Shown here one piece after another: positions 3,511-53,216 of a stretch of DNA of 64,000 bases. Numbering within the stretch: the stretch's first letter is position 1; each line of letters starts with the position of its first letter. The notes beneath the pieces were generated by a model. The model made no database searches. It worked only from the letters and a program-made list of their open reading frames with translations, and had not been told where the DNA came from. The position numbers and the translations under genes are program-made. Source of the stretch: a bacterium (GTDB taxonomy: Bacteria; Patescibacteriota; Minisyncoccia; Moranbacterales; UBA2206); the NCBI GenBank assembly GCA_043725085.1, contig JAYSLY010000014.1, positions 2,748 to 66,747 of the forward strand. The letters are read 5' to 3'.

Positions 3511-4200
3511 TTAGGAAATCTTATATTTACCTTTTTCGTCATCAAAAATAACCCGACCTTTCTCGAGCACAACCACTCTCTTTGCCGCTTTATTTACGAT
3601 ATCTCGGTCATGACTAGCCAGCACAACTGTCGTGCCTAGTTTGTTAATTTTCAAAAGTAGCTGCATAATTTCCAAAGAAGAAACCGGATCAAGATTGCCT
3701 GTCGGCTCATCAGCGATGATTACTAATGGTTTGTGAATAAGCGCTCTTGCCATAGCAACTCGTTGCTGCTCCCCGCCGGAAAGTTCGTGGGGATATTTAT
3801 TTTGCTGATCTCCTAAGCCCACGATTTCCAATATTTGAGGTACATCCTCAAGAATTTCCTCTCGCGGTGCGCCACAAACTTCCAGGGCATAGGCCACGTT
3901 TTCAAATGCGGTTTTTTTGTTCAGCAATTTAAAATCCTGAAAAACTGTCCCGATATTTCTTCGATGCTCCGAGATGCGCCTTCTACTGATACTATCAAGA
4001 GGTTTTTCGGCAAAAAATACTTGCCCCTCGGTTGGAGCCTCTTCGGCATAAATCATCTTGAGGATTGTTGATTTTCCGGCACCACTCTGACCAACAATGG
4101 AAACGAACTCCCCTGCTTTGATTTCCAGATTAATATCCTCCAGCGCGATATAGTTATCTTTATAGATTTTCGAAACCTTATCAAACTTAATCATTGCCAT
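3511..4200 (-). CDS. ftsE: cell division ATP-binding protein FtsE
   Basis: An ABC ATPase with Walker A (GQSGAGKST), the ABC signature (LSGGEQQRV) and Walker B (VIIADEPTGNLD), paired with ftsX. Confidence 0.9.
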   Translation of the reverse strand: MAMIKFDKVSKIYKDNYIALEDINLEIKAGEFVSIVGQSGAGKSTILKMIYAEEAPTEGQVFFAEKPLDSISRRRISEHRRNIGTVFQDFKLLNKKTAFENVAYALEVCGAPREEILEDVPQILEIVGLGDQQNKYPHELSGGEQQRVAMARALIHKPLVIIADEPTGNLDPVSSLEIMQLLLKINKLGTTVVLASHDRDIVNKAAKRVVVLEKGRVIFDDEKGKYKIS

Positions 4201-49102: not shown

Positions 49103-50680
49103 TTATATGTTTGTTTTTATTTTTTTATTTTTCACAAAATACACCACACATATTATGATAGCATACCAAACCACCATGCCTTGCCACGAAAGGCCGACCT
49201 CCAGCGCGGCATATTTCAAACTTGCTGCGTAGTTGATGACATCTACCTCATAGCGTAAAGGCAAATAGGTTAGCCAGGAAAAAACAATGGCGAGCGGCCA
49301 AAAAAGAAAACTGATTGCTACCGCCAAAAATCCCAAAAGCATTGTGAGCGGTAAAATTGGCAAAACCAAAACATTCGTCAGCGGAGAGATGAGTGAAAGT
49401 TTTTGAAAATTAAAAAGAATAATCGGCAACACAAAAACTTGCGCGCTCAGTGACATAAACAGAATTTCCGCAATGAAAGAAAAAACGGCCGGATATTTTT
49501 TCAACTTTTCACCAAAATATTTTTCGAACAGCGGATAGAAATAGACAATGCCGATTGTCGCCAGAAATGACAGCTGAAATCCGACGTCATAGCGAAGAAG
49601 GAGCGGATTCCAAAAAAGCATCACGGCGGCGGCAAAAATAATTGCATTTTGGGCATTAGCCAGCCTTCCATTTTTCATTGCATAAAGGAGCAGCGTGCCC
49701 ATCACACCGGCGCGAATGGCTGAAGCGGGAAAACCGGTCATTAAAATAAAAATCCAAATGCCCAAAAGCGCAAACCAAAACGCTTGCCGACGCCAGAGAC
49801 CCAAAAACAATCCCAAGAGCATCAAATATTCCGCCACAATCGTGATGTTATACCCTGACACTGCCACAATATGCGTCATGCCGGTACGTGAAAAATTATC
49901 TTGAATACTTTTAGAAAGCTTATCATCCCCGCCAATAATCAAGCCTTCCAAAAGTCCCGCTTCCGGCGCGGGAATGAGCAATGAAATCTTGGCGCTGAAT
50001 TTGTTTTTCAAACTAATCACTGCGCCATAAAAAATATTTCCCAAATTTTTTCGTCCGCCAGCCGGCGGATTTTCAATTTGCGGTTTTTGGCAAAGATAGA
50101 AAATATCATCTCGCGCCAAATAGGCCACGTAGTCAAAATCCGAGTCTTCTCTGTTTTTTGGTTTGGTTAAGTTGCAAGTCAACTTCAACTCCTCGCCATA
50201 GGCATAACTTTCATAGATACTTTCTTGAATGAGCACGTTGTAGTTTTCACCTTCGGGAGCAAAGATGATTTCTTGCACTTTTTCCTTGATTTTCGGTTCG
50301 CGTGCAATCATCCCTTGTCCGGAAAAATCAATTTCCTCTGGCGCGCTCTCGAATGAATTTATTTTATCGATTTTTTTCTGAGTCAGATGAAAGCCAAAAA
50401 CAAACATAATGAGCGCGCCGCAAATCAGCATCACCATTTTATTTTTATAGAAAACAAAAAGAGCGCTAAGCGTAAAAAGCAAAAGTATATATGAAAATGC
50501 CGTGCCAAAAATAGCGGGATAGAAAAATGAAGCGCAAAAAACTCCAAAAATAAAACTCAAAGAAAACAGCAAAAATATTTTCGCTTTGGTCATTTTTGAC
50601 ATGAGTTTATTATAGCAGAAATTATCCAGACCCCTAAAAACAGCTATACTTGACTTTGCATACCAATGCATCTTATCCAA
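49103..50680 (-). CDS. comEC: ComEC N-terminal OB (DUF4131) + competence membrane domain (5' fragment of a frameshifted comEC)
   Basis: It contains the competence-domain motif (TGMTHIVAVSGYNITIV). It ends ...FVKNKKIKTNI* inside the A-rich run AAAAATAAAAAAATAAAAAC, and a +1-nt change there joins it to the downstream MBL frame. Confidence 0.7.
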   Translation of the reverse strand: MDKMHWYAKSSIAVFRGLDNFCYNKLMSKMTKAKIFLLFSLSFIFGVFCASFFYPAIFGTAFSYILLLFTLSALFVFYKNKMVMLICGALIMFVFGFHLTQKKIDKINSFESAPEEIDFSGQGMIAREPKIKEKVQEIIFAPEGENYNVLIQESIYESYAYGEELKLTCNLTKPKNREDSDFDYVAYLARDDIFYLCQKPQIENPPAGGRKNLGNIFYGAVISLKNKFSAKISLLIPAPEAGLLEGLIIGGDDKLSKSIQDNFSRTGMTHIVAVSGYNITIVAEYLMLLGLFLGLWRRQAFWFALLGIWIFILMTGFPASAIRAGVMGTLLLYAMKNGRLANAQNAIIFAAAVMLFWNPLLLRYDVGFQLSFLATIGIVYFYPLFEKYFGEKLKKYPAVFSFIAEILFMSLSAQVFVLPIILFNFQKLSLISPLTNVLVLPILPLTMLLGFLAVAISFLFWPLAIVFSWLTYLPLRYEVDVINYAASLKYAALEVGLSWQGMVVWYAIIICVVYFVKNKKIKTNI

Positions 50681-51671
50681 AATGATCCGTCTCCTTCAAC
50701 TTCTGCTGCAACTTCTTCCCATTTCCATGTCGCAACATTCCCAAATACGAAGTCAACCTTCCTGGATCGTAATTTCTTCGCATCTTTTTTATCATTCTTC
50801 TTTTGGTACTTGTCCTCAACACCCTGTGATCAGAAAAATTTACCCAACCCAGAAAATCCACACCAGAAGAAAAAGTTTTGATAAAAACTTTACTAGGATG
50901 CAGTTTTAATTTCAGTTTAGTTTCCAAAAAATCGGATATTTCAGGAATTAAACTCTCCAAATGGTTTTTATCTTCTGACAAAATCACAAAATCATCCGCG
51001 TAACGGATATAGTATTTGACTTTCAATTTATGTTTCATAAACTGATCGAATTTGTTCATGTAAATATTGACGAATAATTGCGAAGTTAAATTGCCCAGTG
51101 GCAATCCGACATTCGTCTTTCCTGGAGTTGCAAAACTTTCAATCACATTTTTCAAAAGCCAGATGATGTTTTCGTCCGGAACATGTTCGGCTAAAATGTT
51201 TTTGAGTATTTGATGATCAATATTGGCAAAGAATTTTCTGATGTCGCATTCCAGAATCCAGCAAGTTTTCGTATTATTTTGACTGACTTTCTGAAAATAT
51301 TTTCTAAACTTGTTAATTGCTTTATGTGTGCCTTTATTATTCCGGCAGGAATATGAATCAGCGATAAAAGTCTTGTCGAAAAAGGGATAGAGTTTTCGAT
51401 AGATGGCATGATGAAGGAGTCTGTCTTTAATGCAAGCTTTGTGGATGTCTCTCGGTTTGGGATCGTTGATTTTGAAAGCTTGATAGCTGCCGTGTTTGTA
51501 GGTATGATGAAGAAGCTCGTGGTGCAGTGAAAAGATGTTGTCCATGAGACAAAGAGAAAATTCCTGGACATCATATTTCTTCCTTTTGCCGTTTTGGAAT
51601 TCTTTCCAGGCCAAAAGTAAGTTTTCCAGGCTAATAATATCTTCAAAACTATGAGTCAGTTGAATTTTCAT
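50673..51671 (-). CDS. diversity-generating retroelement (DGR) reverse transcriptase
   Basis: The 332-aa ORF has RT motifs 1-7, with YIRYADDFVIL in motif 5. Motif 4 reads GLPLGNLTSQLFVNIYMN, the DGR-diagnostic (I/L)GNLTSQ form. There is no maturase or endonuclease domain. Confidence 0.85.
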   Translation of the reverse strand: MKIQLTHSFEDIISLENLLLAWKEFQNGKRKKYDVQEFSLCLMDNIFSLHHELLHHTYKHGSYQAFKINDPKPRDIHKACIKDRLLHHAIYRKLYPFFDKTFIADSYSCRNNKGTHKAINKFRKYFQKVSQNNTKTCWILECDIRKFFANIDHQILKNILAEHVPDENIIWLLKNVIESFATPGKTNVGLPLGNLTSQLFVNIYMNKFDQFMKHKLKVKYYIRYADDFVILSEDKNHLESLIPEISDFLETKLKLKLHPSKVFIKTFSSGVDFLGWVNFSDHRVLRTSTKRRMIKKMRRNYDPGRLTSYLGMLRHGNGKKLQQKLKETDHFG

Positions 51672-51744
51672 AGCAAAAATTTTAATCCGTTAACGCCCCC
51701 CCCCAAGACTTCCGCAGGTTTTTGAAAAAGTAAAATCGCTCTAT

Positions 51745-52080
51745 TTGGCTTGGTATGAATATTATCAGATTTTACCAACCACCCATCGATATACTCTGGG
51801 ACAAAAAATCGATAAATACTTTACGGAAATTATTGAATCGATTGCCATTGCTGCTTTTCTGAAACCGGAAGAAAAAATACCGTATGTCCGGTTGGCTATT
51901 CGCAAATCCGATGTTTTGAAAATTTTTCTGAATATTCTTTGGGAAACAAAATCTTTGGATGACAAGAAATATATTTTGCTTTCGGATAAATTAAATTCTG
52001 TCGGTCGCGATCTTGGTGGCTGGAGTGGAAGCCTTACAAAGAAAAACTCTCCCGATTCAAAACAGGGAGAGCGAAAATGA
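51745..52080 (+). CDS. avd: Avd-like accessory variability determinant (four-helix-bundle protein), TTG start
   Basis: The 111-aa ORF is basic and helical, and its C-terminus (VGRDLGGWSGSLTKKN) resembles Bordetella phage Avd (VGRILGSWIARVNRKG). It lies between the RT and TR but on the opposite strand. Confidence 0.55.
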   Translation: MAWYEYYQILPTTHRYTLGQKIDKYFTEIIESIAIAAFLKPEEKIPYVRLAIRKSDVLKIFLNILWETKSLDDKKYILLSDKLNSVGRDLGGWSGSLTKKNSPDSKQGERK

Positions 52081-52089
52081 AAATAGTTT

Positions 52090-52211
52090 CGGGGCGACGA
52101 ACGCAAACCCATCGTCATCGTTCCACCTGTTGTCAGGCCTGTCATACGCAGTGTTCAACCACCGACCATCATCGTTGCGGTTGGCGTTGAGCAGGTTCGG
52201 ATCGCCGTCAG
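52090..52211 (-). repeat. DGR template repeat (TR) including IMH*-like 3' end
   Basis: It aligns to 52577..52699. All 15 mismatches over 101 aligned nt are TR adenines (minus-strand sense) opposite non-A bases in VR. The GC-rich end reads TTTGCGTTCGTCGCCCCG. Confidence 0.85.
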
Positions 52212-52475
52212 TTTTGCGCGATATGCCTTCCTTGCCACTGCCCGTTGAATACTCTCCGGGCTGAATCGAATTCCGCATCTTAAATGCGCTAGCATACCAC
52301 ACCAAGTATCTTCATTTTTTTGAAGTTTCTGCATACGCCACTTTATCCGAAACCGTGATCGCGGATAATCTCGACGTATGGATACTGGATTCGGAAGCGG
52401 GAAACCTACCTACCGGCAGGCAGGCGTGATCGCCCGCATTCTTCCCTACTACCTTTTTTATTTTACCAAATTTAA

Positions 52476-52521
52476 GAGCCTTGTGCGAGAATTCAACACA
52501 AGGCTCCGTTTTTAATTTTTT
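52476..52521. terminator. strong hairpin with T-run between TR and VR (terminator-like, plus-strand sense)
   Basis: A perfect 10-bp stem GAGCCTTGTG...CACAAGGCTC with an 11-nt loop is followed by CGTTTTTAATTTTTT on the plus strand; the minus-strand side is weaker (TTAAATTTGG). Confidence 0.45.
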
Positions 52522-52522
52522 A

Positions 52523-52563
52523 GGACTGAGTTTTTGAGGACTAGTCCTCAGTAGCTGAGTCCT
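52523..52563 (-). promoter_or_regulatory. hairpin/cruciform immediately 3' of VR/IMH (DGR homing-associated structure)
   Basis: A perfect 14-bp palindrome GAGGACTAGTCCTC (52536..52549) overlaps the target stop codon and is nested within AGGACT...AGTCCT arms. Confidence 0.6.
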
Positions 52564-53216
52564 GAGCACTGACTTGCGGGGCGACGAACGCAAAACCCAA
52601 CGTCACCGCACCACCTGTAGTCAGGCCTGTCAAACGCAGAGTCCAACCACCGACCACCATCGCGGCGGTAGGCGCTGAGCAGGCGCGGATCGCCGTCAGA
52701 ATCTTTGATGGGCTCGTGCATTACCACGACCCACCAGAGACCCATCGCTTCGATTTCCTCATCCGCGAATTTCTCCCGGATAAGACAGGCTACTTCGGCA
52801 TTCGGCTTCTCGAGCTTCCGCTCATCGGCTTCGGCGCGAATGTTCTTGGTAATGCGATCGCTATCTTTCCACAGATTGCCCTTGAGGACAATGATGTGGT
52901 AGGACACTCCATTCGTCGGCTTGAAGTCTCCCGACATAAGGACGCTCTTCGCGTAATCACCGACTCTGAAACCCTTCTTCTCGAGTCTTTTGATCCACTC
53001 GAGTCCGGTCGTTCCGTCGGAAGTCATGATACCGAGATCGATCACGCCGTCTTGTTCCTTCCATGAGCGCACGACTTCAGAAACGATCCATTCTTTGGAA
53101 TTGATCCTGCGAACAGCTTCGTTCGCGTCGGCGATTCCCATCTGACTCATGATGGTTTTCACCATCGCATTGAGTTTTCCCGGCATAACTTCCGCAATTG
53201 CAAATCCGTCTGACAT
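52548..53216 (-). CDS. DGR target protein with C-terminal variable region (minimal C-type-lectin-like VR)
   Basis: The 222-aa ORF ends in the VR-encoded tail ...GDPRLLSAYRRDGGRWLDSAFDRPDYRWCGDVGFCVRRP. The TR translation is GDPNLLNANRNDDGRWLNTAYDRPDNRWNDDDGFAFVAP, with AAY(Asn) codons at the variable sites. No signal peptide is evident. Confidence 0.75.
   Translation of the reverse strand: MSDGFAIAEVMPGKLNAMVKTIMSQMGIADANEAVRRINSKEWIVSEVVRSWKEQDGVIDLGIMTSDGTTGLEWIKRLEKKGFRVGDYAKSVLMSGDFKPTNGVSYHIIVLKGNLWKDSDRITKNIRAEADERKLEKPNAEVACLIREKFADEEIEAMGLWWVVVMHEPIKDSDGDPRLLSAYRRDGGRWLDSAFDRPDYRWCGDVGFCVRRPASQCSGLSY
52577..52699 (-). repeat. DGR variable repeat (VR) with IMH at 3' end
   Basis: See the TR entry for the alignment. 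The IMH reads TTTTGCGTTCGTCGCCCCG in minus sense and differs from the TR copy by one T. Confidence 0.85.

Follow-up and report, generated by a model that had tools for sequence, protein, structure and literature searches.

The diversity-generating retroelement (DGR) of Bordetella phage BPP-1 carries mtd, avd, its template repeat (TR) and brt in that order, and the cryo-EM structure of its complex of reverse transcriptase (bRT), Avd and RNA (PDB 8ub7; Handa et al. 2018 and 2024) comes from the one phage element for which there is structural detail on what DGR reverse transcription requires of its RNA. Efficient homing in this DGR needs an inverted repeat, according to the citation of Guo et al. 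2011 in PMC5758913. In bacteria of the candidate phyla radiation (CPR, Patescibacteria), 90% of DGRs have architecture B3, TR-(avd)-RT, in which avd is encoded on the reverse strand (RT, reverse transcriptase; Wu et al. 2018, PMC5758913), and a CPR-restricted DGR clade (clade 2) has targets without recognisable domains (Roux et al. 2021, PMC8144416). Here we analyse 64,000 nucleotides (nt) of contig JAYSLY010000014.1 (positions 2,748 to 66,747 of the forward strand) from a bacterium of the Moranbacterales (assembly GCA_043725085.1), a stretch that we call the window and to whose first letter all coordinates refer. Positions 50673–53216 of the window very probably hold a chromosomal Patescibacteria DGR with the order target gene (carrying the variable repeat, VR), TR, avd on the reverse strand and RT. 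This element is an ordinary member of the known, very large Patescibacteria DGR lineage and, taken by itself, one more example in a lineage of thousands. Two additions at the level of the lineage, a simple-sequence repeat (SSR) at avd and a structured 5′ domain of the TR RNA, could each govern the firing of the DGR. DGR regulation is an open question, for which the conserved slippery repeat at avd gives a concrete hypothesis, and the 5′ RNA domain offers a second, very widespread model together with a ready alignment for a new RNA family.

The assignment is carried first by the relation between two repeats on the minus strand, TR (52090..52211; 122 nt with 27 adenines) and VR (52577..52699; 123 nt). 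A first-pass annotation, made by a model from the letters alone, had placed a 122-bp repeat pair at these positions with 15 differences, all of them at adenines of the TR; alignment reproduced the pair and its differences, and the length applies to TR, VR being one nucleotide longer because of an extra T within the run 52592–52595. Read in the minus-strand sense, the two repeats differ by a 1-nt indel and at 15 single positions. At each of these 15 an A of TR is replaced by C, G or T in VR, 12 TR adenines are kept, and none of the 95 non-A positions differs (hypergeometric P = 2.8e-12 for 15 of 15 differences falling on the 27 adenines), so that substitutions are confined to adenines rather than spread over all four TR bases; the identity at 95 of 95 non-A positions also argues for recent homing. 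All 15 variable adenines occupy codon positions 1 or 2, within codons 178–206 of the 222-aa open reading frame (ORF) 53216..52548. Asn codons had been said to lie exactly where VR varies, and this is the case for seven of the 12 altered codons, which are AAC in TR, the others being Asp, Thr and Tyr codons. The theoretical repertoire of the TR amounts to approximately 6e15 protein variants. An adenine-tolerant TR match found no second VR in the 64-kb window.

The RT gene (50673..51671, minus strand; 332 aa) encodes the motifs LGNLTSQ and YADD and matches Pfam RVT_1 with an E value of 4.6e-26. Its best relative in the PDB is the RT of the Bordetella phage DGR, 8ub7 (E 1.3e-42, 150 bits, 290 residues aligned), with the aligned motifs LGNLTSQLFVNIY and IGSLTSQLFANVY in addition to YADD. 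The protein itself is present in the protein collection (entry P0152), where at least 7972 homologues were found at E ≤ 1e-60, the nearest named ones being from Moranbacteria. On the plus strand, inverted with respect to RT, TR and VR, lies avd (51694..52080), with an open frame from 51694 and Avd homology from approximately 51715; it matches NCBIfam DivGenRetAVD (E 1.6e-13, profile positions 2–102 of 104) and Pfam bAvd (E 1.1e-7), and DivGenRetAVD was matched by 18 of 18 Avd members of the lineage that were tested.

The target gene (52548..53216, minus strand; 222 aa), with VR at its C-terminus, is predicted to encode a compact C-type-lectin-fold variable protein, CLec/FGE-like, with VR in the C-terminal part. 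In this predicted fold class it resembles Mtd (1yu0), TvpA (2y3c) and the archaeal AvpA, with VR forming C-terminal strands and loops. We found no signal peptide or known domain in it and no sequence match in Pfam, NCBIfam or the PDB. Its 1936 homologues are approximately 218 aa long, those with names coming from CPR bacteria; relatives occur in 231 species genomes, and the best 80 are almost all labelled Patescibacteria. The order target, TR, inverted avd and RT was found again in at least 30 of the best 80 loci, and TR/VR mismatches in related loci comprise 713 of the type A>N against 309 of all other types, alignment overhang included. The window locus thus has the B3 arrangement, TR-(avd)-RT with avd reversed and the target upstream, and it shares with the CPR B3 DGRs the gene order, the inverted avd, the CPR host, the short target with a C-terminal VR and neither transmembrane segment nor known domain, and a TR/VR indel with frameshift, which is occasional there; nothing in the element itself sets it apart from them. 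With the BPP-1 DGR it shares an RT of the [I/L]GxxxSQ type, Avd, adenine mutagenesis, a GC-rich end resembling the initiation of mutagenic homing (IMH) element and an inverted repeat after VR, whereas the BPP-1 DGR sits on a phage and the window DGR on a chromosome.

The IMH-like GC-rich 3′ end of VR (52577–52591, minus strand) is common to TR and VR, and two hairpins follow it on the minus strand. The nearer one (52522..52563), a hairpin or cruciform that starts 14 nt downstream of VR, contains the perfect 14-bp palindrome GAGGACTAGTCCTC (52536–52549), which occurs once in the window, and corresponds in position to the inverted repeat of the Bordetella phage DGR. The second (52475..52507), downstream of the target gene, is a strong terminator-like hairpin with a 12-bp stem, whose stem sequence differs among close relatives while the pairing is retained in the alignment. 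The region that holds both hairpins has a folding z-score of −6.0. Where the first-pass annotation had announced a complete textbook DGR, the DGR is real, its 332-aa RT bears the DGR motif LGNLTSQ as described, and the palindrome is indeed nested in a longer hairpin after VR; an Avd-like protein does lie between RT and TR, as the DivGenRetAVD match shows, while the textbook picture fails in that avd is inverted, on the plus strand, and lacks an in-frame start, and in that the 3′ end of VR is frameshifted.

We propose that the element would work as follows. An RNA of approximately 415 nt would be transcribed from its own −10 promoter (52468..52460) and would be made up of a domain of 240 nt with six helices, then the 122-nt TR and finally a stem-loop that carries a U-run. 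RT and Avd would copy the TR into cDNA with misincorporation opposite adenines, and the cDNA would replace VR at the 3′ end of the target, homing being guided by the GC-rich end common to both repeats and by the hairpin that lies downstream of VR, so that up to 20 codons of the C-type-lectin-fold protein would be recoded. The ends of the RNA, the roles of its parts and current activity are what we infer in this scheme.

In its template RNA the lineage differs from BPP-1. The 365 nt that separate VR from TR are more than inert filler, and within this interval an extended −10 element TGGTAAAAT (52460..52468, minus strand) fits the pattern TGnTAnnnT. The same pattern is present in 37 of 64 related loci, where 6–7 nt separate its end from the first G in the conserved GGTAGTAGG, and the other loci listed, inspected by eye, have a −10 of the TAnnnT type at about the same position. 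The approximately 240 nt from the promoter to TR are conserved at the nucleotide level in about 95 loci (nhmmer profile), and RNAalifold applied to a 60-sequence MAFFT alignment gave 49 pairs in six helices, 39 of which have compensatory double changes. Paired cells made up 96.4% in this domain compared with 80% after shuffling and 39–48% with slid partners, and the covariation score was 0.657 compared with 0.31 and 0.12–0.18, respectively. In the window the six-helix domain spans 52212..52453 (minus strand), directly 5′ of TR, and consists of P1 (52437–52428/52406–52397), P2 (52380–52373/52339–52332), P3 (52367–52357/52354–52344), the 12-bp P4 (52302–52291/52227–52216), P5 (52288–52284/52278–52274) and P6 (52261–52257/52244–52240), all on the minus strand. 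P4 closes a three-way junction and ends 4 nt before TR, where it would act as the duplex that stops cDNA synthesis at the 5′ boundary of TR.

Directly 3′ of TR and within the 3′ end of avd, a stem-loop (52072..52046) is followed by a U-run (52045..52037), together 52037..52072 on the minus strand, which we regard as a putative site of Avd binding and/or as a putative terminator for the TR RNA. A crude test detected a hairpin followed by a T-rich tail just 3′ of TR in 79 of the 100 related loci. Avd-binding stem-loops have been predicted just downstream of TR in 207 of 278 DGRs, CPR ones included, in a study whose view upstream of TR was limited to 40 nt (Handa et al. 2024, bioRxiv 10.1101/2023.10.23.563531). 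The TR RNA would appear to be a transcription unit of its own, approximately 415 nt long, with its protein-binding scaffold mainly upstream of TR. The stem-loop 3′ of TR resembles the Avd-binding stem-loop of the BPP-1 DGR. Unlike in BPP-1, avd in the window is inverted and convergent on TR, which leaves no free spacer ('Sp') between TR and RT; a large structured RNA stands upstream of TR instead, and the helix beside the TR 5′ end, P4, is built wholly from upstream sequence and not by pairing of upstream with downstream sequence. A search of the cassette against Rfam gave nothing but spurious sub-threshold hits, to U4 and snoR12, and no match to the 5′ domain, and neither RT-10, the BPP-1 Sp RNA, nor any other of the families RT-1 to RT-19 was found in the cassette (E ≤ 1) or in six related loci (E ≤ 0.1). 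The lineage pairs a covarying domain and a defined promoter with a topology different from that of the phage element, the scaffold lying upstream of TR and avd antisense downstream. A GC-rich palindrome of approximately 20 nt (similar to CCTGCCTGCCGGCAGGCAGG) is inserted in the TR-RNA domain of three loci at three different places (52408–52429 in the P1 loop of the window, and in loci L052 and L177), in no case within a predicted helix; it has the look of a very small insert, either mobile or hairpin-forming, and is compatible with the structure model.

The second addition concerns the junction of avd and RT, two genes that are divergent and about 20–70 nt apart. Between their starts the window has a C9 tract (51696..51704, plus strand; G9 on the RT/TR-sense strand), the sole G/C run of 7 or more in the 64 kb. 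Of 97 related loci left after removal of redundancy, 80 have a strict SSR within the 100 nt upstream of RT; the background elsewhere is 28 per 1.008 Mb, which makes an approximately 300-fold enrichment. At least six motifs serve as repeat units (in RT sense, G7–15, (GA)7–14, (GT)8–12, (TTGG)11, (TTGA)7 and (CTGG)8), and the polarity is identical in all 85 repeats scored, the avd strand being rich in C/T/A and the RT strand in G, with no stop codon in any avd-strand frame. The repeat keeps a tighter distance to the conserved N-terminal motif of Avd, LPVLxKVK (median 4 nt, standard deviation 2.7), than to the RT start (median 16 nt, standard deviation 9.3). Avd homology begins right after the repeat, in a stretch that is protein-constrained, as judged by synonymous changes and Ser TCG/AGT changes between close loci. 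A sequencing artefact of poly-G is ruled out by the internal position of the tract, its unique flanks and its presence at the same place in more than 100 loci from many samples and assemblies. The tract tends to break assemblies, which may bias the tract lengths seen: one scaffold (L098, ~4003–4012) has a gap (NN) exactly at the G-tract, and another contig (L182) ends 6 nt before it. One sub-lineage (L184 and L185; RT P0240, 65 contigs) has no avd/RT repeat and instead a 190-nt gap that contains a long near-perfect palindrome, cacttagggactaagtcccc..ggggacttagtccctaagtg.

How avd is translated past this repeat varies from locus to locus. In the window the first in-frame canonical start is TTG 51745, downstream of the start of homology, and the upstream ATG 51651 and TTG 51660 are, with C9, in another frame that runs into a stop at 51723; a tract of C8 or C11 would join them to the Avd frame. 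Among 85 loci, a canonical start (TTG, ATG or GTG, mostly TTG) stands just downstream of the repeat in 32; in another 21 an upstream start reads across the repeat into the avd frame; and 32, the window among them, have neither. In one of the 21, a complete Giovannonibacteria genome, avd is called as a 135-aa gene that overlaps the RT start, with its frame passing through the repeat. The antisense ATG of RT codon 7 was considered as a universal avd start; it stands in the avd frame in 8 loci, at +1 in 11 and at +2 in 6, frames no different from random, by which this candidate is neither proven nor disproven.

Contingency loci such as the tetranucleotide repeats of Haemophilus and the poly-G/C tracts of Neisseria, Campylobacter and Bordetella offer the closest parallel. 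In common with them, the lineage has an ORF whose 5′ end bears a tract of mono-, di- or tetranucleotide units, conserved in place and variable in length and unit, with lengths that differ between some close relatives and a mixture of in-frame and out-of-frame states. It differs from them in that the tract belongs to a gene that serves a mutagenesis machine, in CPR bacteria that are free-living or episymbiotic, in its strictly kept polarity, and in a consensus length that is stable in two of three strain groups. We tentatively read the repeat as a slippage-prone gate on the supply of Avd, which would operate through phase variation of the DNA and/or slippage at the level of the transcript. The wider proposal, that the lineage has its avd gated by a hypermutable SSR, so that a stochastic minority of cells would hypermutate, and that the 240-nt 5′ RNA takes the place of the downstream spacer RNA of the Bordetella phage DGR, is one that we put forward as possible yet short of an even chance. 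If true, it would place a contingency switch on top of a diversity generator, with slippage at the DNA or transcript level deciding whether Avd is produced. In the literature searched we found no link between DGRs or avd and such repeats, and in that on CPR DGRs no description of the avd repeat, the 240-nt 5′ RNA domain or its promoter; prior description is possible.

Several observations weigh against the gate. Strain comparisons of SSR length, which compare assembly consensus sequences only, showed an invariant consensus in two of the three groups of strains that had been assembled independently (G7 in 15 contigs, G10 in 6 contigs), and the G7 population, whose avd is out of frame, still shows turnover of VR; neither this turnover nor the fixed polarity is explained by a simple on/off switch. 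The repeat may then be no switch at all, and could instead act through its sequence or structure (as a pyrimidine-rich leader of avd, as a 5′ untranslated region or promoter element of RT, or as a G-rich RNA or DNA motif), or Avd could be made constitutively by transcriptional or ribosomal slippage. We give this alternative a substantial chance, although not one that we would bet on. Pure mutability does not account for a polarity shared by all 85 repeats, the start codon just past the tract in 32 of the 85 loci would make the repeat a leader, the ratio of in-frame to out-of-frame loci, 21:32, is what random phase would give, and the stable consensus lengths point in the same direction. Against a specific element stand the six or more unrelated mono-, di- and tetranucleotide units found at one spot, which suggest that slippage-proneness and not a particular sequence is what is kept, and the 53 of 85 loci without a canonical start between the tract and the Avd N-terminal motif, in which translation has to enter through the repeat. 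A promoter role in its simple form (−35 TTGGGG, the tract as spacer and a −10 before the RT start) failed, as the spacers scatter over 3–24 nt and tract length showed no compensation for distance (r = −0.23). One clonal pair of metagenome contigs (L141 and L145) differs in tract length alone, G10 versus G8, and is otherwise identical over 5765 nt, as a slippage-prone gate would allow. Four more look-ups in one protein cluster returned contigs that end at or before the tract.

Whether the cassette in the window is itself active is a separate matter. VR-restricted variation was seen in relatives of the window locus. In a Falkowbacteria population, two contigs showed 20 differences over 5648 nt, all 20 within VR and mostly coinciding with adenines of a related TR, and within protein clusters of 90% identity the differences between members fall almost exclusively in VR. 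These Falkowbacteria loci from Crystal Geyser (L010 and L082–L097) are unusual in that VR abuts avd directly, the post-TR stem-loop comes next, and the locus lacks both a separate TR and the 5′ RNA domain, yet two alleles differ at 20 VR positions; they may be products of VR/TR recombination that are serviced in trans, or may be self-templating.

For the window several features count against a complete and working DGR. The Avd scores are under the curated cut-offs (DivGenRetAVD 51 versus 80 bits), and neither a single-sequence PDB search nor a profile of the lineage Avd reached the solved Avd structures. In this assembly avd is out of frame with every upstream start. The extra T in VR (TTTT at 52592–52595, against TTT at 52105–52107 in TR; A runs on the plus strand) adjoins the last mutated adenine, just 5′ of the shared GC-rich end GCGTTCGTCGCCCCG, and puts the last 16 target residues out of frame relative to the family consensus GFAFVxxQV: the protein ends in GFCVRRPASQCSGLSY, where the family-typical GFAFVAPQVSAQDSATED would stop at TAG 52543..52541. 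This T, also present in an independent Logan contig (L001), may be the product of imprecise homing or an assembly error; TR and VR differ in length in 7% of DGRs (Wu et al. 2018, PMC5758913). IMH and its TR counterpart (IMH-star) differ by the 1-nt indel only, so discrimination of donor from recipient must rest on flanking sequence; identical IMH/IMH-star pairs exist in some DGRs (Wu et al. 2018, PMC5758913). Searches for further copies of the window locus yielded one, L001, which is identical to it; in JGI metagenomes no strain variant of the locus came up with a DNA pattern that had N in place of each TR adenine, and an exact look-up of the RT gave no contig.

With no in-frame avd start behind C9 and one T too many in VR, the cassette may be switched off or dependent on slippage. 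A step further, it could be a recently inactivated, fossil DGR in which the adenine pattern records past homing, as the stop codon directly upstream of the tract, the C-terminus out of line with both TR and family, and the lack of a variant copy would have it. We consider this unlikely, since both ORFs, that of RT and that of avd, are unbroken and well conserved, the identity of TR and VR at non-A positions speaks for recent homing, and a new homing event could overwrite the extra T. Moreover, an out-of-frame avd is shared by 32 of the 85 related loci, including a population with demonstrable VR turnover, and so looks like the normal condition of the lineage and not like decay.

That this is the RT of a group II intron, of a retron or of a defence system and that the repeat pair is an ordinary diverged duplication is extremely improbable and can be set aside: its best NCBIfam match by name is indeed a group II intron RT/maturase (TIGR04416) and several database records call its relatives 'retron-type' or 'group II intron' RT, but the TIGR04416 match of 155.6 bits is half of the 300-bit cut-off, the retron and DRT models score 27–76 bits against cut-offs of 200–600 (58.6 against 235 for the retron RT model), the best group II intron RT in the PDB comparison reaches 76 bits, about half of the bRT score, so that by bit scores the RT is nearer to bRT than to either group, Rfam shows no intron RNA at E ≤ 1 and no retron RNA, and the adenine-only TR/VR divergence (P ~3e-12) fits no chance repeat.

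The DGR is flanked by ComEC, DUF167 and STAS-like genes. The stop region of RT (50673–50680) shares 8 nt with the beginning of the ComEC-like gene that lies downstream (49103..50680), which places the DGR tightly among housekeeping genes and not in a prophage. The G+C content is 54% in the target gene and 59% in TR, compared with 39.5% in the window and 36% in the RT gene. About half of the 80 target homologues (L003–L081) have no RT or avd within 5 kb and read as orphan or remote targets, and some genomes have several target copies (for example, LCGL01000001 with L011 and L018). In one 385-aa protein (P0007) the whole target domain is tandemly duplicated, and the contig L141 carries a second, partial copy of the cassette that is 91% identical to the first (59–610 versus 2587–2991).

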